A stretch of 64,000 nucleotides of DNA from Mycobacteriales bacterium (GCA_038245655.1 JBBRSE010000018.1:743-64742), one strand, 5' to 3'; positions 7,105 to 53,228 are shown, counted from the first letter of the stretch. Numbers and translations are program-made. The notes: generated by a model not told the origin, from the sequence alone.

Positions 7105-7171
7105 GCCGCAACCCGCCTTTCCACCAAACATCCACCAGGATTCGACGCCTCAGCGCAAGGTTCAGGTTTAG

Positions 7172-10935: not shown

Positions 10936-10954
10936 TTGTCCAGCGTACGGAAGG

Positions 10955-11986: not shown

Positions 11987-12756
11987 GTGCTGCTGGGCTC
12001 GCTATCGGCCGGAGCGTGACGCCCGTCCAGGCTCTTACCGAGCATCGACAGCACTACCGCGAGAATTCCGCCGATCACGATCGCAGAATCGGCCACGTTG
12101 AACACCGGCCAGTGGTGCAGGTGAATCCAGTCGACAACGTGGCCACGCAACGGACCGGGTGCACGAAAAAGCCGATCGCCGAGGTTGCCCAGCGCACCCC
12201 CGAGGAGCAGTCCAAGCGCCCAGGCCCAGCCGACAGAGCCCAACTGACGGGCCGCCCGCACGATGAAGACCACCACCGACGCCGCCACGAGCGTGAAGAT
12301 CACGGTCGCCCCGGCGGCGAACCCGAAAGCTGCTCCCGCATTGCGGGTGAGCTGCAGATCCAGCACCGACGGGATCGCGTCGACAGGTGCGCGGTTGGCG
12401 AGCTTGGCCACCACAACGATCTTGCTGACGACGTCTGCGACCAGGATGATCGCCGCCACGATCAGCAGCAGCGGCAGGCGGCGACGAACCTGCGCTACGG
12501 GCTCCGGCGCGTGCTCCGGCACCGCGGCGGGCTCCCTGGCCTGCGGCTCGTCGACGGAAGCGCGCGTATCGAAGGGACTGCGCGCGTCGGCTGCCCGCTG
12601 CGTCGGCTCTGCCACGCAGCGCAGTCTAGGCGTGCGCGGCGCACCCGGCTCTGCGCGCGCACCCTCGCCAGCGGCACGGTCGTGCAAATCTGCCCCAAGT
12701 TCCACGGCGCAGCCCGATTCACCCCCTTCACCCGGCGTGTCGCCGGAATGGATCAT
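11983..12756 (-). CDS. lspA: Lipoprotein signal peptidase II (start uncertain)
   Basis: Motifs TRNAGAAFGF and FNVADS with four TM helices. The charged 80-90-aa N-terminal stretch is doubtful; in-frame GTGs at 12615 and 12522 are alternative starts. Confidence 0.85.
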   Translation of the reverse strand: MIHSGDTPGEGGESGCAVELGADLHDRAAGEGARAEPGAPRTPRLRCVAEPTQRAADARSPFDTRASVDEPQAREPAAVPEHAPEPVAQVRRRLPLLLIVAAIILVADVVSKIVVVAKLANRAPVDAIPSVLDLQLTRNAGAAFGFAAGATVIFTLVAASVVVFIVRAARQLGSVGWAWALGLLLGGALGNLGDRLFRAPGPLRGHVVDWIHLHHWPVFNVADSAIVIGGILAVVLSMLGKSLDGRHAPADSEPSST

Positions 12757-12777
12757 GGTTTCGGGCAGATTTGCACG
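12681..12777. repeat. Perfect 15-bp inverted repeat, arms separated by 67 bp
   Basis: CGTGCAAATCTGCCC at 12681-12695 and its exact reverse complement GGGCAGATTTGCACG at 12763-12777. The arms are AT-richer than their surroundings. Confidence 0.9.
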
Positions 12778-12825
12778 GCGTGACCGGCCCTGGCCCTCCG
12801 GGATACGCTTGGGACGCGCGGAGCG

Positions 12826-13079
12826 GCCCTGACGGGGACGAGTAGCGCCGGAAGCAGCCCAGAGCGATCCGGGGGCGGTGTGAGCCCGGAGGCCGGCCCG
12901 GCGTGAAAATCACCCCTGAGCCGCCGGCAGAAACGGGCCGGGGACAAAATCCCTGGTCCGCGCTAGACCCGGCCCGCGCAGCTGAGGGGGCCCGCGCAGG
13001 TAGGCGGGCCAAGGAGGGTGGTACCGCGGGGCCGGCAGGTCTCGTCCCTTCGCCGGACGACCGACGAAGGAGTACCGAG
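12826..13079 (+). promoter_or_regulatory. T-box riboswitch leader (tRNA-Ile), translational type
   Basis: (1) T-box sequence GGGUGGUACCGCG at 13016-13028. (2) Specifier loop with S-turn elements AGUA (12841-12844) and GAA, AUC codon at 12909-12911 followed by A. (3) Stem I helices GGGG/CCCC (12834-37 / 12913-16) and CGCCGG/CCGGCG. (4) AG-bulge-like AGAGCG and distal GGUGUGAG. (5) CCUUCG (13047-52) can pair with CGAAGG of the SD (13065-70). Confidence 0.85.
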
Positions 13080-16000: not shown

Positions 16001-16205
16001 CGGCCTGGATGTCAGCGACCGGATCGAACTGTGGTGGGAGGCCGAGAGCAGTGAACTGGCCGCGGCCGTCCGCGAGCACGCGGCCGCGATCGCTGCTGAG
16101 GTGTTGGCGACCTCATTCACCGAAGGACACCCCAAGGTGGCCGTCGCACCGCACCGCGACGACGACCTCGGGCTGACGATATGGCTACGGGTCGCCGGCG
16201 GTTGA
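13080..16205 (+). CDS. ileS: Isoleucine--tRNA ligase
   Basis: Class I motifs PTANGKPGAHHV and KMSKH plus a CP1 editing domain. ATG at 13080 lies 7 nt after GAAGGAG. The ORF-track start at 12903 runs through the T-box. Confidence 0.97.
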   Translation: MPPAPPPFRPLPTGPPDLPSLETQVLARWHETAVFDRSIAQTADGPRWVFYEGPPTANGKPGAHHVEARVFKDLFPRFKTMKGFSVPRRAGWDCHGLPVELGIEKELGFSGKQDIEAYGVAEFNAKCRESVLRHVDEFERLTERMGYWTDMAGAYRTMDTSYIESVWWSLKTIWDKGLLVQDNRVAPYCPRCQTALSDHEVALGYTDVVDPSVYVRFPVVDRPYDLLVWTTTPWTLVSNTAVAVHPEVTYAVVSTSDQVPGARPLLVAEPLIASAVGADAEVIERIPGRELEGLAYVRPLDLIPAEEFGPAAHRVVLADYVTVEDGTGLVHQAPAFGAEDLEVARRYGLEVVNPIRANGTFDEHVPLVGGQFFKTADEALVEELERSAVLWRHVPYEHSYPLCWRCDTPLLYYALPSWYIRTTAIKDRLLAENEATRWYPSRIKHGRYGEWLRGNVDWALSRNRYWGTPLPIWVCGDETTHRVCVASLGELGELAGKDLSALDPHRPFVDDVTLACTAQGCTGRMTRVPEVIDVWYDSGSMPFAQWGAPHKQLAEFEANYPAQYICEAIDQTRGWFYTLMAIGTLVFDKSSYETVLCLGLLLDGDGRKMSKHLGNVLDPFELFDRHGADAVRWLMLAGGSPWMDRRVGHANIEEVVRKVLLTYYNTASFFLLYASTSDWQPGQPAAAEHVLDRWARSELADTVLEVDAALEDFDSARAGKRIAGFLDDLSNWYVRRSRRRFWAGDPAALATLHECLATVTQLMAPMTPFLTDWLWPQLAIPGAPDSVHLTSWPVPGGAQTDRALSTQMVLVRRLVELGRAARAGAKVKTRQPLARAGIPAALLSQLDAELRQEIADELNVMAVEPLDGELVDIVVKPNFRALGKRFGSRTKQVAAAVAEAGHPVDGRLSVVVDGETLEISADELIVTETPQAGWAVARESGASVALDLTLTDELRRAGLARDVVRRAQEARKQSGLDVSDRIELWWEAESSELAAAVREHAAAIAAEVLATSFTEGHPKVAVAPHRDDDLGLTIWLRVAGG

Positions 16206-16207
16206 GC

Positions 16208-16252
16208 GGGGCTGCTGCTAGGGCTTGCAGACGCCGCAAGCCAGGTAGCCCC
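16208..16252. terminator. Possible bidirectional hairpin between convergent ileS and the downstream membrane-protein gene
   Basis: Inner stem GGCTTGC-7nt-GCAAGCC (16222-16242) extended by GGGGCT/AGCCCC (16208-13 / 16247-52). It begins 3 nt after the ileS TGA. There is no U-tract and it overlaps the last codons of the minus-strand gene. Confidence 0.3.
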
Positions 16253-17387
16253 GGCGGACCGCCTCGACCTTGCCGGACTCCTCGCTTTCCAGACCTTCCA
16301 GCAGCTCGCAGTCGGCGCGGTGGTATTCGCGGGTCGACGCGACAGCTTGCACGGTCCGGCCGCCGCGACGCGGGCGGGCTGGCGCGGCGGGGGTGCCGCC
16401 GCTGGTGTCAGCGTCCGGCTGCGCGGCTTGGGTGGGTGCCGTCGTCGCGGAGAAGTCGGCGACGGGTGCGGCGGTAGGCGGCGGCGCGGGTGCAGCGGGT
16501 GCCGTCCCTGGCACCGGCGCCGAGGTCGCGGCCGCAGGCGCGCTGACGGACGGGGCGGCGATCGGCGGGGCGGCCACGGGCGGCGGCGCAGGATGGGCCG
16601 CCTGGGCGACCGGTTCGGTCACCGGCACCGCAGGCGCGGAGGCCGCGGCCGGTTGCTGAACGGGCACGCTGTTGTGCGAAACGTGTTGCGGGGCAGCGCT
16701 GTAGGCGGGCATCGCCGGCGCCGTCACCGCGACGGGCGGCATGTCGTGCGCCGGGCTCGGCTCCTCGGGACCGTGCCCATCCGCAGCATGCTCACGGCCC
16801 GCGGCGCCGCGGCCCAACGTCTCGTTAGGCCGGCAAACCCCGCACGGGGTGAATCCCAATTCGCGGGCCTCGACGATCTCAATCGGCTCGGAGTCGTCAT
16901 GACCTTCGACGTATTCGCAGCCACCGACGTGATAGCGCGGACGTCCGGAAATGACGAGCACATCGGCGCCGGTCGCCTCCGCCCGCTGCTCGAAGTCAGC
17001 GTTGGCGGCTTCCAGCGGAAAGTCGGAGGTTGCGTCGTCCGGTGCGTCGTCCGGTACGTCGGCATGGTCGTCGGCATGGTCGTCGGCGTCAACGTCGTGC
17101 GGCGAATGCTCCGGCTCTTTCGTGAGCACGGGCTTCTGCGCAGTTTCCTTCGGGGACTTCTTCGGCTCACGTGACGGCGCCTGGCGCCGGGTGGCGTCGC
17201 TGTCGGCGTCGCCATCACCCGCATCGGCGGCAGGAACGGGCCGCTGGAAAACTCCCACCAGCAAGAAGACCGCAGAAACCAGGGACAGGCCGATCGCCGC
17301 ATACACCAACGTGATGCTGCCCGCCACGATACCGATGAGCAGTAACACTGCGGCTATAAGGACAAGCGCCCCGCTGAGAACAATCAA
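16218..17387 (-). CDS. Membrane-anchored Pro/Ala-rich protein with two Cys-rich YH-x3-C...C-x2-C-(R/K)-P modules
   Basis: TTG at 17387, 7 nt after AAGGTGA. Two N-terminal TM helices and an acidic repeat linker. Module 1 is RYHVGGCEYV...GFTPCGVCRP; module 2, at the C-terminus, is EYHRADCELL...GYLACGVCKP. Confidence 0.7.
   Translation of the reverse strand: MIVLSGALVLIAAVLLLIGIVAGSITLVYAAIGLSLVSAVFLLVGVFQRPVPAADAGDGDADSDATRRQAPSREPKKSPKETAQKPVLTKEPEHSPHDVDADDHADDHADVPDDAPDDATSDFPLEAANADFEQRAEATGADVLVISGRPRYHVGGCEYVEGHDDSEPIEIVEARELGFTPCGVCRPNETLGRGAAGREHAADGHGPEEPSPAHDMPPVAVTAPAMPAYSAAPQHVSHNSVPVQQPAAASAPAVPVTEPVAQAAHPAPPPVAAPPIAAPSVSAPAAATSAPVPGTAPAAPAPPPTAAPVADFSATTAPTQAAQPDADTSGGTPAAPARPRRGGRTVQAVASTREYHRADCELLEGLESEESGKVEAVRRGYLACGVCKP
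17031..17082. repeat. Two adjacent perfect 12-nt tandem duplications inside the acidic linker of the 16218-17387 gene
   Basis: TGCGTCGTCCGG x2 (17031-17054) and TCGGCATGGTCG x2 (17059-17082). They encode the repeated acidic DDA / DDHA peptide units of the linker. Confidence 0.9.
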
Positions 17388-41120: not shown

Positions 41121-43579
41121 ACACGACCACTCTCGACCGTCCGGAGCCGCGCGGCGCGGGACGCCCGGGCGCCCCGTCGCCGTGGTGGCCTCCGCCGCCC
41201 CCGAAGCCGCCGCGCGGCATGTCGGCCGAGCTGCGCATTCCGATGCCCGTGCTGGCCACGCTGGCGACGCTGTGCACCACGCTGTGCCTCGGCAATCTTT
41301 TCGAGGGCATCCGCTGGTGGTTCTACCCGTCGCTGGGGGCGATCGTGGTGGCGGCGATCGTGGGCGAGCTCGGCCGTCGCGTGCGGGCGCCGCTTGCGGT
41401 GATGCCGCTGCTCTATGCCGTCGCCGGATGGCTGTACGTCATACCGGTCGCCGCGGGCGACTCGGGACGGCGGCCAGGCGTCGGACTGTGGCCTACCGGC
41501 GACACCTTCACTGCCTTGCGCGATCTGGCCAACTCCGGCTCCACCGACATCCGCGCCCTGACCGTCCCCGTCCCCGATCGGCCCGGATTCCTTTTCCTCA
41601 CCGTGGCCGGGGTCTTCGTCATCGCCGCCCTCGTCGATGCGATCGCGGTAGGGCTCGACCGGCCGGCGGCCGCTGGTCTCCCGCTGCTGGCGCTGCTAGC
41701 GGTCCCGGCTGCAGTCGTCGAGCGCGGGGTCGGCCTGCTGGCTTTCGTGGCAGCCTGCCTGTCGTACCTGGCGATGCTGCTCTCCTCAGGCCGGCATGGG
41801 TTCGTACGCTGGGCGCGCGTCCCGGCGGGAGCCGCGGCCGGGATCCGCCAGGCAACGGGCGCGACGGGGCGGCGCATCGGTGCCATCGCCGTCGTCGCGG
41901 CGCTCTTCCTGCCGGTACTCATCCCGCGCTATACCGGCGTCGGACGTCACCGCTCCAGCGGCAGTGGAGGCGGATCGGCCACCGTCATCGAGCCGGTCGT
42001 CACCCTCGCGCAGCAGCTGCACAGCGACTCCATACAACCTCTGCTGACGGTGCACACGCAGACCCCCGAGTACCTGCGGCTGGCCTCGCTCGAGCATTTC
42101 GACGGGCAACGCTTCACGCTCGGTTCGCTGTCGGCCGGACGCGACGCCAGGGTGTCTCACGGATTGCCGGCTCCTGCCAAGGGCAGCACCGCCGAAGTGA
42201 AGGCGACGATCGACGTCGAAAACGTCCTGCACCAGCGTTATCTGCCGACCCCGTACCAGGCGACGCAGGTGGCGATCGATGGTGACTGGCGGCTGTCCGG
42301 GCGAACGTTCACCATCTTTTCCGCCCAGAACGACACTTCCGGCGCCCACTACTCGGTGACCTCGCAAGTCGCGACGCCGACCGCGGAGGCACTACGGGCC
42401 CAGACCCCGACCGGCTCGCTGGCGCCCGAGATTGACGCCGACATCAACCTGCCGAACGACCTGCCGGTGGAGATCTCCGAGCTCGCGGCGCGGCTGACGG
42501 CCAGCTACCCGACCGAATACGACAAAGCCGCCGCCATCCAGGCCTACCTGCGCGGCCCGCTCTTCACGTACGACCTGAAGGGTGCCCCGATCGGGAACAA
42601 CGCGCTGGCGGACTTCCTGCTGCGTGACCATCGGGGTTACTGCGAGCAGTTCGCGGGAGCGATGGTCGTGCTCGCCCGGGAGGCGGGGATTCCGGCCCGC
42701 GTGGCCGTGGGGTTCACCCCTGGTACCCGCCAGGCGGATGGCAGCTGGCTGATCACCAACCATGACGCCCACTCCTGGCCCGAGATCTGGTTCCCGCAAG
42801 CCGGCTGGATCCGCTTCGAACCCACCAAGCGCGACGACAGCACGACTGCGCCGGACTACACACAGAACCCGCAGGGCGGCGCGCCGGCGCCGATCCAGTC
42901 CGCCGACCCGAAGTCACAGGCGACCGCGGCACCGAGCGGCAAGGCGAGCCAGCCGGCAGCCGGCCCATCGAGTGGCCTGACGAGCGGCGCAGGTTCCTCC
43001 GGCGGCGGGCTTTCCTTCCCCGCGACCCAGGTGCTGGGTTGGAGCGGCGGCGCGGCCGTCGGCGTCGTCCTGCTGCTCGCACCGGCCCGGCTGCGGCGGC
43101 GTCGGCGGCGGCGGCGCCTTGACGACAGTTCGGCCGGCTGGCAGCGCGACGCGTGGCGGGAGATCGTCGACACGGCCGTGGATCTTGGTGTTGACGTGCC
43201 GGCGACGCTCTCCCCTCGCCGGACCGTGCAGCGATGGTCACGCCTTTCGACCGGCGAGCGCGTCATGCCCGACGCCGCGAGCAAAGTACTGGCCGAGGTC
43301 GCTCACGCCGAGGAACGCTTCCGGTATGCCCCGCAATCGAGCGCCGGCGCCGATCCGGCGGTCGCCTGGACCGCGCAGGAGGTTCGGGACGCCCTGCATT
43401 CCTGGGAACACTCCCGCGAATCCCGGGTGCGCCTGCGCGCCCTGCTGGCGCCGCGGTCCATGCGCCCGGCGGCTAGGACCGTCCTGGCGGGCGAATCGGG
43501 CCCGGGTGCAGACAGCAAGCCGGGCTCGCGCAGGCTTGCGCTGCGGCGGCTCCGGTCAAGGCCAGCAGGTCAAAGCTGA
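41117..43579 (+). CDS. Transglutaminase-domain (TgpA-like) polytopic membrane protein
   Basis: ATG at 41117 in an ATGA overlap with the DUF58 stop. About 6 N-terminal TM helices. Cys-His-Asp core GYCEQFAGAM ... NHDAHSWPEIWF, then a C-terminal TM and tail. Confidence 0.85.
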   Translation: MNTTTLDRPEPRGAGRPGAPSPWWPPPPPKPPRGMSAELRIPMPVLATLATLCTTLCLGNLFEGIRWWFYPSLGAIVVAAIVGELGRRVRAPLAVMPLLYAVAGWLYVIPVAAGDSGRRPGVGLWPTGDTFTALRDLANSGSTDIRALTVPVPDRPGFLFLTVAGVFVIAALVDAIAVGLDRPAAAGLPLLALLAVPAAVVERGVGLLAFVAACLSYLAMLLSSGRHGFVRWARVPAGAAAGIRQATGATGRRIGAIAVVAALFLPVLIPRYTGVGRHRSSGSGGGSATVIEPVVTLAQQLHSDSIQPLLTVHTQTPEYLRLASLEHFDGQRFTLGSLSAGRDARVSHGLPAPAKGSTAEVKATIDVENVLHQRYLPTPYQATQVAIDGDWRLSGRTFTIFSAQNDTSGAHYSVTSQVATPTAEALRAQTPTGSLAPEIDADINLPNDLPVEISELAARLTASYPTEYDKAAAIQAYLRGPLFTYDLKGAPIGNNALADFLLRDHRGYCEQFAGAMVVLAREAGIPARVAVGFTPGTRQADGSWLITNHDAHSWPEIWFPQAGWIRFEPTKRDDSTTAPDYTQNPQGGAPAPIQSADPKSQATAAPSGKASQPAAGPSSGLTSGAGSSGGGLSFPATQVLGWSGGAAVGVVLLLAPARLRRRRRRRRLDDSSAGWQRDAWREIVDTAVDLGVDVPATLSPRRTVQRWSRLSTGERVMPDAASKVLAEVAHAEERFRYAPQSSAGADPAVAWTAQEVRDALHSWEHSRESRVRLRALLAPRSMRPAARTVLAGESGPGADSKPGSRRLALRRLRSRPAGQS

Positions 43580-43645
43580 CCGAGCGGATCCTTTGCGCGT
43601 GACCCTGCAAGATCCGATTCTGGCGGATCCGAAAGCCGGACTCGG

Positions 43646-44044
43646 TTAGCGGTCGCGGTCGTCCCAGCGCCGCTGCCAACGCTCCTGCGCGCGCTGGGAG
43701 AGCGAGCGACGGGCCTTCGGCGACCGCGATCGGCGGGAGCGGGACTCGAGATCGGGCCGGCCGCCGAGCCGACGAAGATCGCCGGAGCCCCGCAGCGCCG
43801 CGAGCAACATGACGACAAAACCCAACAAACCAAGCACAATGCTGGCCGCACCGGAATTGATCACTACCGCCGCGACGAGCACACCGAGCCCGACGACGAA
43901 CAGGGCGGTGGAGCGCCAGAGCCGCCGAATCGCATACGAACGTGGGTTTATCGAGCGGACGGTGCTGACAAGTTTGGGGTCGTCGGCGTAGAGATCGCGC
44001 TCGATTTGCTCGAGCAGACGCTGCTCGTGCTCTGAGAGCGGCAT
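43646..44044 (-). CDS. DUF3040-domain membrane protein
   Basis: MPLSEHEQRLLEQIERDLYADDPKL followed by two TM helices. ATG at 44044 lies after GGGAGGAG. Confidence 0.75.
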   Translation of the reverse strand: MPLSEHEQRLLEQIERDLYADDPKLVSTVRSINPRSYAIRRLWRSTALFVVGLGVLVAAVVINSGAASIVLGLLGFVVMLLAALRGSGDLRRLGGRPDLESRSRRSRSPKARRSLSQRAQERWQRRWDDRDR

Positions 44045-44223
44045 CCGCGCTCCTCCCCACACCAACATTCCAGACCCCGATGGGGGTCTTCTCAGAATAG
44101 AACCTCGGCAGGATCGACGATAGTCGCAAGCTCCCGGCGTGCGCCAAATTTGGCAAACCTGTGAGTACTTCGCGGTGAACACGCGCTCTCATCGAACCCG
44201 CAATGTGGTGATCACCGCAAAAA

Positions 44224-45483
44224 TCATTGGGTGGGCAGTGAACGGCCAGGGGGATCGACCAGGGACGCCGGGCGTACCGATCCCGAACCGAATCGGGCGG
44301 ACGCCCGGTCGACCGCCCGATCCGCCTCCCGCCATCCGGACTCCCGCTCCCCCAGCGAAAGCTGGCGGGTCACCCGTCCGGAGCTGACGAGCGACTCCGC
44401 ACGCACCCCCACCAAACGCAGGCGGGCGCGTTGGAGCCCGAGCTTGCGGAACAGTTCGCGGGCAACTTCGTAAATCTCGCGCCCGCTATCCGTGGCCTGC
44501 GGCAGGGTGCGCGCTCGGGTGATGGTGGTGAAATCGGCGAAGCGCACCTTCAGGCTGATGGTGCGCGAGGCGTATCCCTGCTCGCGCAGCCGGGCCGCGG
44601 TGCGCTCAGCCAGCCGCAGGACCTCGCGCAGCACGATCTGCGGGTCATCGACGTCACGGGCAAAAGTCTCTTCCGCACCAACGCTTTTCTCCGGCTCGCT
44701 CGCAATGACTTTGCGGTCATCGCGTCCCCACGCAAGCGCTGTCAGGTGGGAGCCGGCCGCGGCTCCGAGCACCCGCTGCAGCGTATGGACCGGCACTTGC
44801 GCGATGTCACCGACCGTCTGCAAGCCAAGCCGATGCAACGACTCCGCAGTGCGCTCACCCACCCCCCACAAGGCCTCAACGGGCAGCGGATGCAGGAAGG
44901 ACACCAGGCCATCCGCCGGGACGACGAGCAGCCCGTCCGGCTTGCCGCGGGCCGAGGCCAGCTTGGCCACAAACTTTGTGGACGCGACCCCCACCGTGCA
45001 GGTGAGCTGCTGCTCGTCCCAGACGCGGGCGCGTATCCACTCGGCAATCTCGCGCGGACGGCCAAGCCGCCGCTCAGCTCCCCGGACGTCGAGGAATGCC
45101 TCGTCCAGCGACAACGGCTCGACGAGTGGGGTGACCGACCGGAAGATCTCCATGATTCCGGCGGAGGCCTCGCTGTAACGACGAAACGTCGGCGGCAGCA
45201 CGATCGCCTGCGGGCACAATCGGCGGGCCCGCATCATGGGCATCGCGCTGCGCACCCCGAACTCGCGCGCCTCATACGTCGCGGACAGGACGACGCCGCG
45301 GGTGCCGCCGCCGCCGACAATGACCGGCTGCCCCTGTAGCTCCGGACGGGTACGCAGCTCCACCGACGCGTAGAACGCGTCCATATCGACATGCAGGATC
45401 GGGCAACCACTATCCGACTGCACGCGTGCAGCGAGACCGGGGAAACCGCCTGATCCGCCGCTCATGACGGCTTCCGCCCACAC
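44224..45483 (-). CDS. dinB: DNA polymerase IV (Y-family, catalytic residues intact)
   Basis: Motifs ILHVDMDAFYASVE and SLDEAFLD plus a little-finger domain. The start could be 45483 or ATG 45465. Confidence 0.92.
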   Translation of the reverse strand: MWAEAVMSGGSGGFPGLAARVQSDSGCPILHVDMDAFYASVELRTRPELQGQPVIVGGGGTRGVVLSATYEAREFGVRSAMPMMRARRLCPQAIVLPPTFRRYSEASAGIMEIFRSVTPLVEPLSLDEAFLDVRGAERRLGRPREIAEWIRARVWDEQQLTCTVGVASTKFVAKLASARGKPDGLLVVPADGLVSFLHPLPVEALWGVGERTAESLHRLGLQTVGDIAQVPVHTLQRVLGAAAGSHLTALAWGRDDRKVIASEPEKSVGAEETFARDVDDPQIVLREVLRLAERTAARLREQGYASRTISLKVRFADFTTITRARTLPQATDSGREIYEVARELFRKLGLQRARLRLVGVRAESLVSSGRVTRQLSLGERESGWREADRAVDRASARFGSGSVRPASLVDPPGRSLPTQ

Positions 45484-45525
45484 CGGGCAGCGGGCTGCAC
45501 CCGTGCAGGAGCCGATGGCGCGTCC

Positions 45526-46308
45526 CTACGCGTCGGGCTTGCGGGCCAGCACGTGCAGCCGGGTGGCCATCGCGCGGTAGACCGGCAGCCGGGCCACCGA
45601 CTCTTCCAGGCGCGCAAGGACCTCTCGGGCGTGGGGCTCGATGTCGAGCACGGCTCCGGGGACGAAATCAGAGAACACCCGATCTCCGTGAATCCCCACC
45701 ACGGACAGTCCCGCGGCCTCCGTGAACTGCACCAGCTCTTCCAGATCGAACCGGCGATGCAGGCGATCGGTGCCCGCCGCGGCCTGATCGAAAAGAACTC
45801 GCTCGGCGGCGTCGAGACGCCCGGCAAGGATTCGGCCGAGGACCGCGGCTGACCGGTTGGCCGCAAGCACGCTGAGCAGGCCGCCCGGCCGCAACGCAAT
45901 TCCGGCGGCCACGATGCCGGCGGCTGGATCATCAGCGACTTCGAGCACGTCATGGCACAACAGGACGTCGACCTGCTGTGGGTCGATGACATCACCGAGG
46001 GTGTCGAGATCGCCCTGGCGACCGCTGACGTGTTCAGCGACTCCGGCCTCCGCAGCCCGGCGCTCGAGGGAAGCCAACGAGTCAGGGCTCGGATCGACGA
46101 CGATGACCCGGTGGCCGAGCTGCGCCAAGGGAACCGCAAACCCGCCGCTGCCACCACCGGCGTCGACGACGACGAGCCTGCCACCACCTCGCTCGCGGCT
46201 CTCGGGTCGCCCAGCAAGCTCCACGAGCGCGCGCCGCAGGTCTTCCCAGACGACGCTGCTGCGCGACGCCGGCCAAGAGCTGGACTGGCTCGACTGACTG
46301 GTAGGCAC
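45526..46308 (-). CDS. Class I SAM-dependent methyltransferase
   Basis: Motif I VVDAGGGSGGFAVPLA, then VVDPS. GTG at 46308 is chosen to avoid overlap with the dnaE2 3' end. Confidence 0.8.
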   Translation of the reverse strand: MPTSQSSQSSSWPASRSSVVWEDLRRALVELAGRPESRERGGGRLVVVDAGGGSGGFAVPLAQLGHRVIVVDPSPDSLASLERRAAEAGVAEHVSGRQGDLDTLGDVIDPQQVDVLLCHDVLEVADDPAAGIVAAGIALRPGGLLSVLAANRSAAVLGRILAGRLDAAERVLFDQAAAGTDRLHRRFDLEELVQFTEAAGLSVVGIHGDRVFSDFVPGAVLDIEPHAREVLARLEESVARLPVYRAMATRLHVLARKPDA

Positions 46309-46453
46309 GCCTGCCTTTCCCGGGACCGCTGGGCATCGGATTCGTGGGTGCCGGCAGCTACACCGGCACTCACCTGGAAGGGTAATCGCCCACCGGCACA
46401 CGGGCGGGTCTGCGACAGCGCCCGCCGGCGGCCGGCCAACACGAATCCGCTGC

Positions 46454-49400
46454 TCATCCGCCCGAGCTCCCCGGGCTGGAATGCCACAACCGGCGGGGAG
46501 CACTGCGAGCGTCCCCGCCTGACGGCTTGATGTCGGCGTAGGGAGACAGGCGAAAACCGGTGGCGTACTGCTGCGCCCGTGCCCCGGCCGGTGGATTGAC
46601 CATCACCGGCCGGCTGGACCGGCTGGCCGCCGCACCCTGAACCGCGAGCTCACTGACTCTGACCGGATCGGCCATGATCCGCTCAACCGCCGCTGCTCCT
46701 CCTGCCTCCCAGGCATCTCGCAGAGCGGGCAGCTCCCAGCAACCGGTCGCCCGCAGCGATACCCCGCGCGGGCCGGTACGGCGTACGAACCCCCGAATAA
46801 CCAGCAGCCACGAATGAAAGACGGTCGATGCGTACCCCGCTTGGGCATCTTCGAAGAAGGTGGCATCGAGCGGTCCCGTCGCGTCATCGAGGGTCACGAA
46901 CACCACCCGCCGCCCCGAGCGAACCGGCGGCGTCTGGGTGGCCACCTTCACTCCAGCGATCAAGATTTCCTGGCGGCTACGGCACCGCACGAGATCGCGG
47001 GCGCGGGTGATACCGAACGCCTTCATGAAGGGCTCGTAGAAGTCCACCACATGGCGAGTGACATCCAGACCCAGCACATCGAGCTCAGCACGCACCTGCT
47101 CGGCGCTGGTGAGCTCAGGGAGTCCGGACGCCCGGACAGCGGATGGATCGTCACCGAGATCGAGGGCGAGCTGCACCGGATCGTGCTCCTGGGCCCCCGC
47201 CGACCCCAGATCCCCGGGCGCCCCGGTCAAACCGGGCAGCCCGGTGCGCGCCGCGCGCGACTGCCGCGCCGCCCTTTCAACGACCCCATCGGCGGCTCGC
47301 TCGGTGCCACCGGCCGCGCCGCCGCGGCTCGAACCCCGCCCGCGCCGGGCGCTGCCCCGGGCCACCGCCCGGCTCCACTGATCAAGCTCAGCGACCTGCA
47401 GAAGCAGATCGCGCCGGGTGATACGACCCCGGCGACGCACCGGTGCCGCCAGCCCGATCCCATAGAGAGAATCGAACCCGCCCGCGAGCACAAGCCGCTC
47501 GACGATGGGTCTGGACACCGCCGCCCGGTGCCAGAAGTCGGACAAGGAGCCGTAGGGCCGGCCGGTGATGATCCCGGTGACTTCAGCCGCATTGATCCCT
47601 TTGACCTCGGACAACGCCATGCGGATGCCGTAATCACGGGCATCGGGAAGCCGCGGGTCAAGCGGTGGATGGCGAGCGGGGGCGTCCAGCACGGCGGGTG
47701 GGGGCTCGGAAAACGACCCGATGCGCTCGACGCGGTAGACGCTGTCGGATTGATTGACGTCGAGTCCCAGCACGGCAATGCCGAATTGGCGGGCATCGTC
47801 GAGGATGAGCCGTTTGGGATACATCCCCGGATCGTGGGTGAGCACCCCGGCGAGGAACGCTGCGGTGTGGTGGGCCTTCAACCAGGCGGATTGGTAGGTG
47901 GGAAGCGCGAAGGCCGCGGCATGCGCCTTGCAGAACCCGAACGACCCGAAGGCTTTCAGCACTTCCCAGACCCGCTCGATGGTCGCGAGGTCGTAGCCGG
48001 CGCGCAGGGCCGCCGGCACGAAGGCGGCCCTGACCTCCGGCTGGAGAACCGGATCACCGAGCGCACGCCTCGCCTCATCAGCTTCGGCCAGCGAAACTTT
48101 GGTCATCTGAGCCACGATTTGCAGGACCTGCTCGTGGAAAACGACGACCCCTCCGGTGTCAGCCAGGTAGGGCTCAAGGTCAGCGTGGATAGAGGTGGCC
48201 TCCCGCCATCCTTGGCGAGCCTCCAAGAAGGGGGTCACCATGTCGCTCTTCACCGGGCCGGGCCGAAACAGCGAAATGTCGATGATGAGATCGTCGAACG
48301 TCTCTGGACCGAACTTTCCCACCAGCTCCCGCTGGCCGGGCGACTCAATCTGAAAGCAGCCGAGAGTGCGGGTGGACTGCACCAGCGCGAAGGTGGCCGG
48401 GTCGGCGCGATCGATGTTGTCGATATCAACGTCGACCTCATCGACCCGTCGCACTTCGGCAATGGCGTGTGAGATCGCTGACTGCATGCGGATCCCGAGC
48501 AGATCGAGCTTGAGCAGCCCGAGATCTTCGACGTCGTCCTTGTCGAACTGGCTCATCGGAAAACCCAGGTAACTCGCCTCTACCGGGGTGCGATCCAGCA
48601 AGGTGGCATCGGACAGGAGCACGCCGCAGGGATGCAGCGCGATGTGACGAGGCAGCCCATCGAGGCGCTCGACGAGGCGCAGCATCAGGTCAAGCCGCTC
48701 GCTGGACAGCCCGCTGCTATGCAACTCCGGCAGATCACGCATCGCTGCGCGCACCTGGCTGGCCCGGATGTGGGGAAACGCTTTGGCCACCGCGTCGATC
48801 TCACCCGGCGGCAACCCGAGCGCCCCACCGACATCGCGGATGGCGTGGCGCGCCCGGTAGGTGTCCATCATCGCGACGCAGGCACAGCGCTCGCCTCCGT
48901 AACGGGCGAGCACCTGCTCATAAACCTCGGTACGCCTGGCCGACTCGACGTCGATGTCGACATCGGGCAACTGGTGGCGCAGCGGTGACAGGAACCGCTC
49001 CATCAGCAGGCCGTAGCGCAGGGGATCGACGTCAGAAACACCGGTGAGATAGGTGACCAGGCTGCCGGCGCCTGAGCCACGAGCCGCGCAGCGGACCCCC
49101 ATCCCGCGGATCAGGTCGACAACATCGGCCACGGTAAGGAAATAGCTCGGATAGCCCAATGCTCGAATCACCTCGAGCTCGGAGTCGAGTCGCTCGTTCA
49201 CCTCCCGGGACAGCTGCATGCCGCGCCGGCCAAGGCCGGCTTCGCAGCGAGCACGCAGCACATGATCAGCGTCATGGGCATTGGCTCCGGCCGGAATGTC
49301 ACCAGTGATCGCCAGCTCCGGAAAGTGGATCTCCCCGATACCGAGATCCGCCTTTGGATCCAGCACGCAGCGCTCGGCGATCTGGCGGGAGCGGATGAGA

Positions 49401-50284
49401 AGGCTCCGCCCACCGTCGGTGAATCCGGCAGCGCGCGCGACTTCCTCGGCAACATCTGCCATTTCCTTGCCCGACTTCAGATACCCCTCTGCATTGGCCC
49501 GGCCGACGTGACGCGGATCCAACGCCACCAGCAACCGGGAGGCATCGAGCACATCGGCGACGGGCGCATCACCTCGGTCGGCATATCTCACCGCATTGGT
49601 AAGGACTACCGGCACGCCCGCATCGAGCCCGAAAGCCGCCCACCGGCCCGCCTTCGCCAGCTCCCCGCGACCCCGGTGATGCACCACCTCGATCTGGAGC
49701 TCGCCCGGCTCCGGGAAGGCCGCGCGCCAGCGAGCCACATGTGCACCGGCGAGTGCCTCGCGGCGCGCGATCAAAGCCCTCCCGGCTTCGGACTGCGGGC
49801 CGAGCAATGCGATAAGGGCACCGCCTCCGGACCGGGCCACCTGCGCGTATTCAGCGATCAGCTCGATGCTGGTGACTGGGGTGCCGCGATCCCCGGCTAA
49901 ATGCGTAGCCGTCACCAACCGGCAGAGTGCCCCCCACCCGGCGCGCCCCGATGCCAGCAGGGTGATCCTCGGCAACCCCGCATCGACGAACGCCCCGCCA
50001 CGCGCCGGCGACGACGACGATCGAGAGGCGGTCTGCCGCGTGTCAGAACGGCGCACTGACGCCAGTGGAGCAACAGCAAGGTCGGTGCCGAGCAGCGGAC
50101 GGATGCCCTCCCGCTGGCAGGCCTTGGCGAAGCGCACCGCACCGTAAACCCCGTCCCGGTCGGTGAGCGCCAGTGCATCCATCCCATGCTCTGCAGCCTT
50201 GGCCGCGAGAAACTGGGGATGCGATGCACCGTGACGCAGGGAATAGCCGGATGCCACATGGAGGTGAACGAAGTAATCGGACAT
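46454..50284 (-). CDS. dnaE2: Error-prone DNA polymerase DnaE2 (ImuC)
   Basis: N-terminal PHP FVHLHVASGYSLRHGAS. No tau/epsilon-binding tail. C-terminus ...SPYADIKPSGG...RRLWHSSPGSSGG, as I recall for DnaE2. Confidence 0.95.
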   Translation of the reverse strand: MSDYFVHLHVASGYSLRHGASHPQFLAAKAAEHGMDALALTDRDGVYGAVRFAKACQREGIRPLLGTDLAVAPLASVRRSDTRQTASRSSSSPARGGAFVDAGLPRITLLASGRAGWGALCRLVTATHLAGDRGTPVTSIELIAEYAQVARSGGGALIALLGPQSEAGRALIARREALAGAHVARWRAAFPEPGELQIEVVHHRGRGELAKAGRWAAFGLDAGVPVVLTNAVRYADRGDAPVADVLDASRLLVALDPRHVGRANAEGYLKSGKEMADVAEEVARAAGFTDGGRSLLIRSRQIAERCVLDPKADLGIGEIHFPELAITGDIPAGANAHDADHVLRARCEAGLGRRGMQLSREVNERLDSELEVIRALGYPSYFLTVADVVDLIRGMGVRCAARGSGAGSLVTYLTGVSDVDPLRYGLLMERFLSPLRHQLPDVDIDVESARRTEVYEQVLARYGGERCACVAMMDTYRARHAIRDVGGALGLPPGEIDAVAKAFPHIRASQVRAAMRDLPELHSSGLSSERLDLMLRLVERLDGLPRHIALHPCGVLLSDATLLDRTPVEASYLGFPMSQFDKDDVEDLGLLKLDLLGIRMQSAISHAIAEVRRVDEVDVDIDNIDRADPATFALVQSTRTLGCFQIESPGQRELVGKFGPETFDDLIIDISLFRPGPVKSDMVTPFLEARQGWREATSIHADLEPYLADTGGVVVFHEQVLQIVAQMTKVSLAEADEARRALGDPVLQPEVRAAFVPAALRAGYDLATIERVWEVLKAFGSFGFCKAHAAAFALPTYQSAWLKAHHTAAFLAGVLTHDPGMYPKRLILDDARQFGIAVLGLDVNQSDSVYRVERIGSFSEPPPAVLDAPARHPPLDPRLPDARDYGIRMALSEVKGINAAEVTGIITGRPYGSLSDFWHRAAVSRPIVERLVLAGGFDSLYGIGLAAPVRRRGRITRRDLLLQVAELDQWSRAVARGSARRGRGSSRGGAAGGTERAADGVVERAARQSRAARTGLPGLTGAPGDLGSAGAQEHDPVQLALDLGDDPSAVRASGLPELTSAEQVRAELDVLGLDVTRHVVDFYEPFMKAFGITRARDLVRCRSRQEILIAGVKVATQTPPVRSGRRVVFVTLDDATGPLDATFFEDAQAGYASTVFHSWLLVIRGFVRRTGPRGVSLRATGCWELPALRDAWEAGGAAAVERIMADPVRVSELAVQGAAASRSSRPVMVNPPAGARAQQYATGFRLSPYADIKPSGGDARSAPRRLWHSSPGSSGG

Positions 50285-50299
50285 GCCCTGCGATTCGAC

Positions 50300-50728
50300 C
50301 TATGCCGACAGCGACAGCGACGGCTGCTGGGCCAGGCCCAGCAAGGCGAGAACTGCTAGCAGGAAACGCTCTGAATCCCGGACGAGATCATCTGCTTCCC
50401 GCTGACTGACCACCGGTCGGCCCGCCTCAGCAGCAGCGCGCTTGGGGGCACCGGCGGCGAAGAACGCCGCCCATTCCCTGAGCTCCGGAGCCACCTCGGT
50501 CAGGAGTCGCCAGGCACTGACCGGCCGACCCCGACGATTGTGGGGTCGGGCTCGGGCAGCTAGCACCGCCGCCGCAGCACGCAATGCGGCGAGGTGAGCA
50601 AGGGCGTAACGCTCCCCAGCCACCTGAGCCCCCTCGGCGTCAGCCAGCCCTTGCCGAGAGGCCGTCAGCAAACCGCCGACGGCTCGCGAAAGCACCCGCA
50701 CCTGCGCCTGGCTCGAAGAAACGGCCAT
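50300..50728 (-). CDS. Small all-helical HEPN-like protein (recalled as the SAV_6107-family HEPN type)
   Basis: 142 aa with an R-x4-H motif in GERYALAHLAALRAAAAVLAAR (R40, H45). TGATG 1-nt overlap with the upstream gene; 15 nt to dnaE2. Confidence 0.65.
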   Translation of the reverse strand: MAVSSSQAQVRVLSRAVGGLLTASRQGLADAEGAQVAGERYALAHLAALRAAAAVLAARARPHNRRGRPVSAWRLLTEVAPELREWAAFFAAGAPKRAAAEAGRPVVSQREADDLVRDSERFLLAVLALLGLAQQPSLSLSA

Positions 50729-51180
50729 CAGTCATGCACCTCCACAAGCTTCCAGCTACCGCGAGACCAGTCGAAACAAAGGTCGTAGACCCCGAGTGAC
50801 GAGGACCGGCCGGAGCCGGCTTCCACCCGCCAGAACTCCTGCTCACCGTCATCAATGGAGGCCGGGCCGATGGACGCTCCGACATCAGGCGCCGGCTCAC
50901 CCCAAGCGCGCTGGGCCCACTTGGGTGACGCGGGAATCGGATCGAGGACAAGGTCGGCTTCCGAACGAGCCACCTCACCGCCGGCAGCCAGCGCCATCGC
51001 CGCGCTGGAAGCCCACCACTGGCCGGACTCGAACCAATGCTCGAGCACGTCTCGGACGACATAGAGCCGCGAGCGCCATAGGAACTGCTCCGGAACATCG
51101 TCACGACGCCGAACTTCGATCGGCTCCGCATGACGCCTACCCACGACCGCCTCCTCCCAGCCCGCCGGCACGACGGGCAA
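50728..51180 (-). CDS. DUF6504-like protein with ImuB-C-terminus-like motifs
   Basis: 150 aa with motif string PIEV..., FLWRSRLYVV, SGQWW, EFWRVEA, GVYDL. Start is TTG 51180 (or GTG 51171). First gene after the SOS promoter. Confidence 0.65.
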   Translation of the reverse strand: MPVVPAGWEEAVVGRRHAEPIEVRRRDDVPEQFLWRSRLYVVRDVLEHWFESGQWWASSAAMALAAGGEVARSEADLVLDPIPASPKWAQRAWGEPAPDVGASIGPASIDDGEQEFWRVEAGSGRSSSLGVYDLCFDWSRGSWKLVEVHD

Positions 51181-51323
51181 TGACCCAGGACACGTGCATC
51201 TACGTGCACGACTCGCCGGGGGAAGGCGACGGTTGCCGGCAGGCGATGTCGCTTCCCCACGACACCGCCTGCCGAACGATCCGGCTTGCCTCGTACGCTG
51301 GATGGGACGCGCAAGCTGGTGTA

Positions 51324-51355
51324 CCGAACATACGTTCGAAACGCCAGGGCGTCAA
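51324..51355 (-). promoter_or_regulatory. LexA (SOS) box overlapping a sigma-A-type promoter
   Basis: The minus strand reads TTGACG-17nt-TATGTT (-35 at 51355-51350, -10 at 51332-51327). The palindrome CGAAC-GTAT-GTTCG (51325-51339) covers the -10. This is a near-match to actinobacterial TCGAAC-N4-GTTCGA. Confidence 0.7.
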
Positions 51356-51397
51356 GCTTTCCGATCGGCGTCCCGACGTCCGCCTAAGGGGCAGCCC

Positions 51398-51580
51398 TCA
51401 GGTGCGCTCGGGCGGCGGCCCGACTCCGTCGCCGCGCAGCACGAACCGCCGGTTGCACGACTGGCACCACCAGCCGCCGCGCTCCCCTACCGGCTCGAGA
51501 TCTTCCTCGCCGCAGTAGGGGCAGTAGAACGGCACCGAACGCTCTCCCCCGGGGGAGGTCGCGGGTGGGCCTTCAGTCAC
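51398..51580 (-). CDS. 60-aa zinc-ribbon microprotein
   Basis: CPYC-x15-CQSC motif. GTG at 51580 lies 7 nt after the sulfite reductase stop. Confidence 0.6.
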   Translation of the reverse strand: MTEGPPATSPGGERSVPFYCPYCGEEDLEPVGERGGWWCQSCNRRFVLRGDGVGPPPERT

Positions 51581-51587
51581 CAGGGGC

Positions 51588-53228
51588 CTACTGCAGCGCC
51601 GACTCGTCAGCGCGCCGGACCCAGGAAGCGAAGCTCTCGCCCTCGGTGCGACCCGCCTGGAACGAGCGCAGGATCCGCTCCACGAAGTCCGGAAGCTCTT
51701 GCGAGGTCACCTTGAGCCCGCGCACCTTGCGTCCGAGCGCCGCCTCGACGCCGAGCGAGCCGCCGAGATGAATCTGGAAGCCCTCTTCGCCGCCGATCAG
51801 GGAACCCTTCAAACCGATGTCGGCGACCTGGAAGCGGGTGCAGGCATTCGGGCAGCCGTTGACGTTGATGCCGATCGGCTCGTCAAAGTTGGGCATGCGG
51901 CGCTCGAGCTCATCGATCAGGTCGCTCGCGCGGGCCTTGGTCTCGACGATGGCGAGCTTGCAGAACTCCAGCCCGGTGCAGGCCATGGTCGAACGGCGGA
52001 ACGACGAGGGGTTCACCGCCAGGTCGAGAGCGGCCAGTTCGGCGGTAAGGCCGTCGACGTCACGAACGCCCAGGATGATCAGCTTCTGCTCGGTCGTGGT
52101 GCGTATCTCGCCGGCGCCGAACCGGTCGGCAAGGTCTGCGACCTGAGCCAGCAGGGTGCCGGGCACCCGGCCGGCGCGCGGCGCGAAACCGACGGCAAAC
52201 GTGCCGTCACGCAGCTCCGTCACGCCGACATGATCGCGACGCTTCGAACGCGGAGTGGCCGGGGCGGGACCGTCCTGCAGCGGGTAGCCGAGGTACTCCT
52301 TCTCGAGCACTTCACGGAAACGCTCCGGACCCCAGTCCGAGACCAGGAACTTAAGGCGCGCCCGGGTACGCGAGCGGCGATATCCGTAGTCCCTGAAGAT
52401 CGACGTGACGCCCGCCCAAACCTCGGGCAGCTGCTCCGGGGTGACGAAGACGCCGAGCCGCACCGCGAGCTTGGGGTTGGTCGACAGGCCGCCGCCGACC
52501 CAGAGGTCGAAGCCGGGAGTGCCCGCGGGTCCGTCGGGCACGCCGACGAAAGAAACGTCGTTGATCTCGTGAATCGTGCAGTGGTCCGGGCATCCGGAGA
52601 TCGCCGTCTTGAATTTGCGAGGCAGGTTGGAGAAGTCGGGCGAGCCGATGTAACGGCTGACAACCTCCGCGATCGCATCGGTGCCGTCGATGACCTCATT
52701 GGCATCGACCCCGGCCAGCGGGCAGCCGAGGATCACGCGCGGGGTGTCCCCGCACGCTTCCGTCGTCGAGAGGCCGGCCCCTTCGAGCCGCTCCCAGATC
52801 GCCGGCATGTCTTCGATACGGATCCAGTGCAGCTGCACGTTCTGACGATCGGTGACATCGGCGGTGTCGCGGCCGTAATCGGTGCTCACCTGCGCGATGA
52901 CCCGCAGCTGCTCGGACGTGAGACGCCCGCCATCGATACGCACCCGCAGCATGAAGAACTTGTCGTCCAGCTCCGCCGGCTCGAGCGAACCGGTCAGGCC
53001 ACCACCGATGCCGGGCTTGCGCTGGGTATAGAGCCCCCACCAGCGCATACGGCCACGCAGATCGTTCGGTTCGATCGAGTCGAACCCGTTTTGCGCGTAG
53101 ACCGTCTCGATCCGCTGCCGGACGTTAAGCCCGTCATCTTCTTTTTTGAACTGCTCATTCGTATTGAGCGGCTCCCGATCGCCGAGGGCCCACTGGCCCT
53201 GCCCGGTGGAGCGCTGAGGCGCGGGCAT
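51588..53228 (-). CDS. sirA: Ferredoxin-dependent sulfite reductase (nitrite/sulfite reductase family)
   Basis: Siroheme/4Fe-4S Cys clusters ACTGLEFCKLA and NGCPNACTRFQ. ATG at 53228 lies 9 nt after GGAAGGA. Confidence 0.93.
   Translation of the reverse strand: MPAPQRSTGQGQWALGDREPLNTNEQFKKEDDGLNVRQRIETVYAQNGFDSIEPNDLRGRMRWWGLYTQRKPGIGGGLTGSLEPAELDDKFFMLRVRIDGGRLTSEQLRVIAQVSTDYGRDTADVTDRQNVQLHWIRIEDMPAIWERLEGAGLSTTEACGDTPRVILGCPLAGVDANEVIDGTDAIAEVVSRYIGSPDFSNLPRKFKTAISGCPDHCTIHEINDVSFVGVPDGPAGTPGFDLWVGGGLSTNPKLAVRLGVFVTPEQLPEVWAGVTSIFRDYGYRRSRTRARLKFLVSDWGPERFREVLEKEYLGYPLQDGPAPATPRSKRRDHVGVTELRDGTFAVGFAPRAGRVPGTLLAQVADLADRFGAGEIRTTTEQKLIILGVRDVDGLTAELAALDLAVNPSSFRRSTMACTGLEFCKLAIVETKARASDLIDELERRMPNFDEPIGINVNGCPNACTRFQVADIGLKGSLIGGEEGFQIHLGGSLGVEAALGRKVRGLKVTSQELPDFVERILRSFQAGRTEGESFASWVRRADESALQ

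Follow-up and report, generated by a model that had tools for sequence, protein, structure and literature searches.

A predicted LexA-controlled DnaE2B-type polymerase operon with an embedded HEPN_SAV_6107 gene in a Mycobacteriales bacterium

INTRODUCTION

Two actinobacterial polymerase sets stand close to the system reported here. One is the LexA-controlled ImuA'-ImuB-DnaE2 mutasome of Mycobacterium tuberculosis and other actinobacteria, whose polymerase is of the DnaE2A type; the other is the DnaE2B-PolY-ImuB-C-RecA module, a computational prediction published in Nucleic Acids Research (NAR) in February 2026 (PMC12926913). We analyzed a five-gene cassette, probably encoding a set of this second kind, at positions 44224-51355 of a 64-kb stretch of DNA from a Mycobacteriales bacterium (GCA_038245655.1 JBBRSE010000018.1:743-64742); this whole stretch is called the window below.

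In the 2026 study the proteins of Tessaracoccus lapidicaptus were modelled as a complex with RecA. DnaE2B was reported in genomes without imuA or imuB, another polymerase group was linked to ImuB-C alone, and the combination of ImuB-C with an inactive PolY was termed split ImuB. ImuB-C was described as a beta-barrel with a novel fold, and the DnaE2 of Streptomyces was placed in group DnaE2B (PMC12926913). A large share of Actinobacteria have no ImuA'/ImuB and carry the DnaE2B set instead. The set has been defined by comparative genomics and AlphaFold models alone, and its sole polymerase studied genetically, that of Streptomyces, is without known role. The Streptomyces DnaE2 operon is LexA-bound and induced by mitomycin C or ultraviolet light (UV), as established by experiment (PMC9380542, PMC3273824).

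The cassette also encodes a HEPN_SAV_6107 protein. This family, confined to Actinobacteria, was listed in a 2013 survey of the HEPN superfamily as devoid of the catalytic Rx4-6H motif and without gene context (PMC3710099, Anantharaman et al. 2013).

RESULTS

Three cassette proteins match the DnaE2B module

The five genes are co-directional, all on the minus strand, and were identified by Pfam and NCBIfam searches. In their order of transcription they encode a DUF6504 protein (50728..51144, PF20114), a HEPN_SAV_6107 family protein of 142 amino acids (aa) (50300..50728, PF18726), a C-family DNA polymerase of 1276 aa with PHP, Pol III alpha, finger, HhH and OB domains (46454..50284), a class I S-adenosylmethionine-dependent methyltransferase (45526..46308, Pfam Methyltransf_11/12/25) and a Y-family polymerase (Pol IV/PolY, 44224..45465). 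A preliminary description of this DNA had already proposed five co-directional genes behind a promoter whose -10 is covered by a LexA box, including a 142-aa HEPN-like protein tightly joined to its neighbors. All of this was recovered: the LexA box has 1 mismatch, the stop codon of DUF6504 overlaps the hepn start codon by 1 nt (TGATG at 50728), and 15 nucleotides (nt) separate hepn from dnaE. The DUF6504-like protein was placed there in the right family, but its length of 150 aa needs correction. The mechanical open reading frame (ORF) spans 50728-51180 and opens at TTG 51180; the true start is most likely GTG 51144, giving 138 aa, because the ribosome-binding site GGGAGGAGG precedes this codon and homologues begin with M-x-R-R-Y.

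The 1276-aa polymerase had been called DnaE2. Its sequence assigns it to the DnaE2B group and not to canonical DnaE2/ImuC. Over the first 400 residues it was 52% identical to the T. lapidicaptus DnaE2B VEP41450 (E = 2.5e-115), a protein of 1277 aa, while being only ~30% identical to the DnaE1 of the window and ~31% to a Micromonospora DnaE2A. The NCBIfam scores fell under the curated cut-offs for both DnaE1 (645 vs 1002) and canonical DnaE2/ImuC (636 vs 939). The three catalytic aspartates are retained, PDVDIDV and LDLLG aligning with D401, D403 and D555 of E. coli Pol III alpha. In the PHP motif, HLHVAS, alanine takes the place of the third histidine, as in every aligned orthologue. DnaE2B orthologues shared a QLALDL-type motif in a variable linker (about 47160-47180 in the window) and an invariant C-terminal tail, TGF+xSPYAD...(K/R)LWHSSPGSSG (46454-46600); the window polymerase ends in RRLWHSSPGSSGG (LWHSSPGSSGG), likewise conserved among them. 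The C-terminal SRDF[H/R] motif that marks DnaE2A was not found in it; the DnaE2A proteins of two surveyed loci (L070 and L047) end in SRDFR. By analogy with SRDF[H/R], the DnaE2B tail and QLALDL are probably short interaction motifs. A replicative role as DnaE1 was considered for the 1276-aa protein and rejected, a canonical DnaE1 (1187 aa, HLHVH motif) being encoded at 3568-7131.

Pol IV was recognized by NCBIfam with 421 bits (cut-off 367) and was 54% identical to the T. lapidicaptus PolY VEP41451 (E = 2e-132). Its mechanical ORF is 44224-45483 and its start is probably ATG 45465. The catalytic acidic residues claimed for it in the preliminary description are indeed in place, in the motifs DMDAFYASVE and SLDEAF. 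PolY orthologues shared a QLxLG clamp-type motif (QLSLGE in the window) and a C-terminal stretch, G(W/R)R(E/D)A(D/E)xAxDxxxxRFGxGxVRPxxL, that is like the RecA N-terminus (RecA-NT). In the window protein this conserved segment, EADRAVDRASARFGSGSVRPASL, resembles the RecA sequence KALEAALAQIEKAHGKGSVMRLG. From these motifs Pol IV appears to be an active PolY with a RecA-NT-like tail.

The DUF6504 protein matched PF20114 with E = 9e-17. It was 30% identical to the T. lapidicaptus ImuB-C VEP41449 in blastp (E = 7e-11), and the family hidden Markov model (HMM) gave 2.6e-24; VEP41449 is itself annotated PF20114/DUF6504. These matches identify it, at the level of sequence, as a standalone ImuB-C protein, and we use this name below. 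The AlphaFold2 (AF2) model showed a core of six beta-strands with a predicted local distance difference test score (pLDDT) of about 90. Neither a Foldseek search of the PDB with this model nor a comparison of the DUF6504 profile with PDB sequences returned a significant match; a six-strand core without PDB match is consistent with the novel fold described for ImuB-C. The term "DUF6504" appeared in no paper of the searchable literature.

Comparison with the described systems

DUF6504, DnaE and Pol IV thus correspond one-to-one to ImuB-C, DnaE2B and PolY of T. lapidicaptus, and it is by this match to the computationally predicted DnaE2B-PolY-ImuB-C(-RecA) module that the three proteins are explained. 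The idea of an alternative or split mutasome, raised in the preliminary description, gains support in this way, whereas the accompanying view that the gene set was uncharacterized as a unit does not stand, given its computational description in February 2026 (PMC12926913). The window carries the elements that define the published module, namely a DnaE2B-group polymerase, a standalone ImuB-C and an apparently active PolY with the RecA-NT motif, and would accordingly be a typical member of this recently predicted mutasome class. The T. lapidicaptus operon has the same gene order, DUF3040 and TgpA neighbors and an upstream LexA box, and its PolY is also active with a RecA-NT-type tail. In contrast to the window, it has neither HEPN nor methyltransferase: the window and most operons add HEPN between imuB-C and dnaE2B, and the window and often other operons carry a methyltransferase between dnaE2B and polY.

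With the ImuA'-ImuB-DnaE2 mutasome, the cassette has in common predicted LexA control, a DnaE2-type polymerase, a Y-family protein, an ImuB-C beta-barrel, a putative RecA-like partner and a presumed role in damage-induced translesion synthesis. It differs in the absence of imuA' and imuB from the window, RecA being the presumed substitute for ImuA'. As had been stated before, neither gene was found in the 64-kb window (tblastn, with a Micromonospora ImuA' query for imuA'). Moreover, the sole Y-family protein of the window keeps its catalytic residues, so appears active, and has no fused ImuB-C, which is a separate 138-aa protein, and its DnaE2B ends in LWHSSPGSSGG where DnaE2A ends in SRDF[H/R].

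Streptomyces dnaE2-dinB2 (DnaE2B-iPolY-RecA; SCO1739/SCO1738, vnz_06640/06635) likewise encodes a DnaE2B-group polymerase, 46% identical to that of the window over the first 400 residues, is SOS-box controlled and has the Y-family gene directly after dnaE2. Unlike in the window, however, the Streptomyces PolY (scDinB2) is inactive, there is no ImuB-C, and HEPN_SAV_6107 lies at a separate locus beside a methyltransferase.

The probable operon starts at a promoter-like site overlapped by a LexA box

A sigma-70-type promoter was found at 51327..51355 on the minus strand, with -35 TTGACG (51355-51350), a 17-nt spacer and -10 TATGTT (51332-51327). It was the sole such site in 43500-51700, where 0.4 were expected from shuffled sequences. 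The LexA (SOS) box TCGAACgtatGTTCGg (51324..51339, minus strand; 1 mismatch to TCGAAC-N4-GTTCGA) contains the whole -10 hexamer. With up to one mismatch allowed, two LexA boxes occur in the window where chance would give 0.24, and both are located at the head of the cassette. The second, TCGAGCATTGGTTCGA on the minus strand (51029..51044, 1 mismatch), lies inside the ImuB-C coding sequence, spans the codons for the conserved LEHWFE and was retained in the closest relatives only; it may reflect coding constraint or be an auxiliary operator. The dnaE2 of S. venezuelae likewise has an intragenic LexA site (PMC9380542). No LexA box was found ahead of polY in the window, and the PafBC/RecA-independent promoter motif TGTCRGTG-N8-TANNNT had no match in the window.

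Of the 83 HEPN-seeded loci described in the next section, nearly all had a LexA box with 0-1 mismatch ahead of HEPN or DUF6504-HEPN, as did six of seven DUF6504-seeded loci; the carriers include Frankia, Micromonosporaceae, Nanopelagicales, Bifidobacteriaceae and Pseudonocardiaceae. Streptomyces HEPN had only a degenerate box at a fixed position, CCGAAC-N4-GATCGA, which fits the experimentally derived Streptomyces LexA consensus tCGAAC-N4-GNNCGa (PMC9380542). Since the box is conserved at the equivalent position in nearly all of the ~90 related loci, the predicted LexA control of the operon is supported by comparative evidence.

HEPN precedes two types of DnaE2 cassette

The 83 loci comprised 80 from a HEPN-seeded genome scan, covering many actinobacterial orders, and 3 from Frankia, and were annotated by tblastn and a DUF6504 HMM. 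DnaE2B directly followed HEPN in 41 of the 83, imuA'-imuB-dnaE2A in 21 (Micromonosporaceae, Pseudofrankia), a methyltransferase only in 13 (Streptomyces, Frankia) and PolY in three; the remaining five were uninformative. DUF6504 was upstream in 34 of the 41 DnaE2B loci, and 23 displayed the full order DUF6504-HEPN-DnaE2B-methyltransferase-PolY. Junctions were tight, usually from -4 to +13 nt between DUF6504 and HEPN and from -4 to a few tens of nt between HEPN and DnaE2B.

Of seven operons retrieved with DUF6504 as the seed, five contained HEPN and those of Tessaracoccus and locus L090 did not; some Nanopelagicales operons consisted of HEPN-DnaE2B-PolY without DUF6504. HEPN and ImuB-C thus each appear singly dispensable, as exemplified by loci L042 (9800-14043), L061 (9527-13775), L088 (8001-13324) and L090 (437-5360); a DnaE2B operon lacking both was not encountered among the loci examined.

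The order DUF6504-HEPN-DnaE2B-(methyltransferase)-PolY-DUF3040 recurred in independent lineages, and DUF3040 and TgpA were downstream of the cassette in most loci. In Frankia and the window, synteny continued past the gene for a MoxR-type AAA protein as far as mraZ and the division and cell wall (dcw) cluster. Judged from this synteny, the cassette appears to be an old chromosomal feature and not a recent import.

In Micromonosporaceae and Pseudofrankia, the LexA box and HEPN were followed by a canonical imuA'-imuB-dnaE2, with a DnaE2 ending in SRDFR, in place of DnaE2B (L019, L022, L023, L026, L028, L029, L033, L037, L044, L047, L053, L054, L070-L072, L075, L080 and L084; about 10000-17000 in each). 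As HEPN is followed by either DnaE2B or imuA'-imuB-dnaE2A, two mutasome types occupy the same slot behind it.

HEPN was also found apart from any adjacent polymerase gene. In Frankia casuarinae CcI3 (CP000249; L002, 9896-10642) it lies beside a methyltransferase and is preceded by two LexA boxes, one of them perfect and the other with 1 mismatch. The genome table of the 2026 NAR paper lists for F. casuarinae two DnaE1, no DnaE2 and no Y-family polymerase, in our tentative reading of its unlabelled columns. This context is a hint that HEPN may have an SOS role independent of the polymerases. In Streptomyces (L016, 8735-10399; S. venezuelae vnz_08595-08615) HEPN and an ABC-transporter ATPase gene point in opposite directions. 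For vnz_08605, inferred to be the HEPN orthologue, the searched rows of the S. venezuelae LexA chromatin immunoprecipitation (ChIP) and RNA-seq supplements contained no entry; its divergent neighbor vnz_08610 was up by 1.86 (taken as log2) with mitomycin C.

The HEPN_SAV_6107 protein

The 142-aa protein matched PF18726 with E = 1e-34; clustered at 90% identity, this family exceeds 6000 clusters. Conservation is high, 47 columns being invariant across 13 sequences. The AF2 model (pLDDT 86, predicted template modelling (TM) score 0.78) was a helical bundle with helices at residues 15-33, 37-59, 72-101 and 109-129, as in the four-helix up-down bundle of the HEPN superfamily. The Foldseek top matches were the HEPN proteins 2hsb, 1wol, 3o10 and 4nqf; those to 2hsb and 1wol had probability 1.0 and TM-scores of 0.58-0.69, with weak E-values of 0.04-0.09. 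The profile gave nothing significant against PDB sequences. The protein is therefore, as a PF18726 member with a predicted bundle matching HEPN crystal structures, like other members of the superfamily (PMC3710099). The family has no gene context in that survey, unlike here, where it is LexA-box-associated and embedded in or leading DnaE2 mutasome operons.

We looked for the catalytic Rx4-6H at the start of the last helix and did not find it; helix 109-129 contains no histidine, and the invariant R40-x4-H45 sits in helix 2. The disordered C-terminal tail holds an invariant Q-P-x-(L/M/I) (window 50300-50330), which in the window is QPSLSL, loosely like hexameric beta-clamp-binding motifs such as QLSLPL.

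HEPN goes unmentioned in the 2026 polymerase study and in its supplements (PMC12926913), and no paper in the searchable literature holds both "DnaE2" and "HEPN". On the comparisons above, the new element of the cassette would be a conserved LexA-box-associated HEPN_SAV_6107 gene, located within most DnaE2B operons and leading imuA'-imuB-dnaE2A operons elsewhere.

Methyltransferase, leader and neighboring genes

The methyltransferase, whose start is probably GTG 46308, 145 nt past the dnaE stop, was weakly CmoM-like (NCBIfam CmoM, 96 bits vs cut-off 366). It had been listed as one gene of the set. In 23 loci it separated DnaE2B from PolY; it was missing from many other DnaE2B operons, including those of Nanopelagicales and Tessaracoccus, and it stayed beside HEPN in genomes without a polymerase there. 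It is thus most likely, from its distribution, a syntenic passenger that is possibly co-transcribed. The gap ahead of polY is 60 nt in the window; in methyltransferase-free operons, polY followed dnaE2B after 3-10 nt or overlapped it. A simple scan detected no terminator-like site inside the five genes.

A 5' leader of ~177 nt (51145..51321, minus strand) is strongly structured, with a minimum free energy of -101 kcal/mol (z = -3.7). Hairpin 1 (51237-51274) exposes the loop GUGGGGAAGCG, invariant in relatives, and hairpin 2 (51214-51231) the loop CCUUCCCC, which is complementary both to GUGGGGAAGCG and to the Shine-Dalgarno sequence GGGAGGAGG of imuB-C (51150-51158). The leader was kept in seven close relatives, with compensatory changes in hairpin 1, and may be a lineage-specific translational switch. 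Rfam families had no match anywhere in the window, leader included.

Third-position GC was 0.69-0.80 in the cassette genes vs 0.84-0.88 in DnaE1, FtsZ and SirA of the window. The low values fit weak expression. Horizontal acquisition was considered as another explanation of them, but recent transfer is disfavored by the chromosomal synteny conserved across orders.

Besides the replicative dnaE1 (3568-7131), the window carries between 17485 and 41120 a divIVA-like gene, ftsZ, the mur/fts genes of the dcw cluster, mraZ and MoxR-DUF58-TgpA; neighbor names other than DnaE1, TgpA and DUF3040 were given by synteny and N-terminal sequence. The translesion cassette accordingly appears to belong to a chromosomal block, conserved in Actinobacteria, that begins at dnaE1 and takes in the dcw cluster. 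On the other side, a small minus-strand ORF for a CxxC...CxxC zinc ribbon (…YCPYCGEEDLEP…WWCQSCNRRF…, about 51398-51540) lies just downstream of a sulfite/nitrite reductase gene and ends ~45 nt short of the SOS promoter's -35 hexamer.

DISCUSSION

We consider it likely that the region is a LexA-repressed operon encoding polymerases of the DnaE2B type that act together in translesion synthesis or mutagenesis. The identities of the genes, their motifs, the layout of promoter and operator and the degree of conservation were computed; we infer LexA binding, co-transcription, the complex and a role in mutagenesis. In the proposed scheme, LexA on the SOS box containing the -10 would block transcription of undamaged cells' operon copies; upon damage, activated RecA would prompt LexA self-cleavage, and one transcript would run through imuB-C, hepn and dnaE2B and probably onward through the methyltransferase gene and polY. 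The orthologue AlphaFold models suggest that the ImuB-C beta-barrel would bind the PHP domain of DnaE2B and that active PolY would recruit RecA via its RecA-N-terminus-like helix. The clamp-type motifs, QLSLGE of PolY and QLALDL of DnaE2B, could bring the set to stalled forks, and HEPN would be made from the same message, between ImuB-C and DnaE2B. Functionally, this would amount to a rebuilt ImuA'-ImuB-DnaE2 mutasome in which RecA substitutes for ImuA', and the inactive ImuB is replaced by two proteins, an active PolY and a free ImuB-C.

Several observations weigh against this scheme. The complex is known solely from AlphaFold models of orthologues (PMC12926913), and deletion of dnaE2 in S. 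coelicolor altered neither UV survival nor UV mutagenesis (PMC3273824). The absence of imuA'/imuB covers 64 kb and not the whole genome, and the 145-nt and 60-nt gaps ahead of the methyltransferase gene and polY could hide promoters missed by a simple scan. When the DUF6504 alignment was compared by hhalign with the C-termini of full-length ImuB, represented by 19 proteins of Micromonosporaceae and Pseudofrankia, the results were weak (P 0.014-0.04, probability ~1%). The Pfam DUF6504 model had no match to full-length ImuB, and the DUF6504 HMM scored just 19 and 10 bits against the DnaE2X-type ImuB-C proteins of the 2026 paper. Given this weak comparison, the equation of DUF6504 with ImuB-C rests on the standalone ImuB-C proteins of that paper and on the DnaE2X-type HMM matches. 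Finally, the role of HEPN is ambiguous: HEPN-less operons exist (Tessaracoccus, L090), and the F. casuarinae HEPN stands behind a perfect LexA box in a genome apparently without DnaE2 and PolY, by the same tentative reading of unlabelled columns.

What HEPN_SAV_6107 does in or beside the operon can be read in two ways. The first, plausible if somewhat short of an even chance, is an independent and ancient SOS gene by the dcw cluster, for instance a damage checkpoint, toxin-like or nucleic-acid-binding factor, whose LexA promoter served as a landing site for polymerase cassettes gained and lost. The box persists where no polymerase is adjacent, perfect in Frankia and degenerate in Streptomyces. 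The position of HEPN relative to the methyltransferase, DUF3040, TgpA, MoxR, mraZ and dcw is conserved whatever intervenes; two unrelated DnaE2 cassettes are found in the same slot, and DnaE2B operons without HEPN occur as a unit elsewhere. A neutral landing site, however, would not be expected to receive insertions on either side of HEPN that preserve start/stop overlaps. A toxin role is unsupported, the canonical Rx4-6H not being at the HEPN-RNase position, and vnz_08605 is absent from the searched rows of the LexA supplements.

The second reading, which we hold to be possible rather than probable, adds HEPN_SAV_6107 to the DnaE2 mutasomes of Actinobacteria as a true further component or as their regulator, the unit being ImuB-C/HEPN/DnaE2B/PolY and HEPN an assembly factor, an inhibitor restraining DnaE2, or a clamp or RecA adaptor. 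Many loci place it between ImuB-C and DnaE2B, with junctions of -4 to about +15 nt, and it would share their SOS promoter. A translesion polymerase gene lies directly downstream in 65 of 78 informative loci, two different module types being among them. Some Nanopelagicales operons dispense with ImuB-C and keep HEPN-DnaE2B-PolY, and the protein is highly conserved, with an invariant Q-P-x-L in its disordered tail. Yet HEPN-less ImuB-C-DnaE2B-PolY operons exist and the published models of four proteins, HEPN not among them, received good ratings (PMC12926913); in Streptomyces and Frankia no polymerase gene is adjacent, and F. casuarinae appears, on the tentative reading above, to have neither DnaE2 nor PolY. 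A more specific form is rather doubtful, namely that HEPN is an SOS-induced component or regulator common to both DnaE2 mutasome types (DnaE2B/ImuB-C/PolY and ImuA'/ImuB/DnaE2A), co-translated and partly interchangeable with ImuB-C; the interchangeability is suggested by operons carrying just one of the two small proteins. The partnership of HEPN with the mutasome proposed in the preliminary description therefore stands as to conservation and tight junctions, and is weakened by its dispensability in some lineages and its occurrence without adjacent DnaE2. Because polymerase-free HEPN loci exist and some DnaE2B operons have no HEPN, the protein is not likely to be an obligatory subunit; judged by its conservation pattern and missing motif, it is most likely an SOS-induced protein without catalytic activity that has an accessory or regulatory role.

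It is unlikely that the five genes are mere co-directional neighbors, with imuB-C, hepn and dnaE2B alone SOS-induced and the methyltransferase and Pol IV in housekeeping roles under constitutive promoters of their own: the 145-nt and 60-nt gaps, the variable presence of the methyltransferase, the missing LexA box before polY and the constitutive, not SOS-induced, dinB1 of S. coelicolor (PMC3273824) would agree with it, but no promoter- or terminator-like site was detected inside the region, polY lies 3-10 nt from dnaE2B or overlaps it where the methyltransferase is lacking, and PolY bears the RecA-NT-type motif that defines the published module.

The window offers a clean and typical example of a DnaE2B operon, with a readable promoter and operator, and points to a conserved LexA-box HEPN gene omitted from the published module. 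Should HEPN modulate the mutasome, it would open a new way to study how error-prone synthesis is held back or directed; should it act on its own, it would be a widespread actinobacterial SOS gene near the cell-division cluster. Were it a shared mutasome component, a non-catalytic HEPN protein would join the induced-mutagenesis machinery of Actinobacteria.

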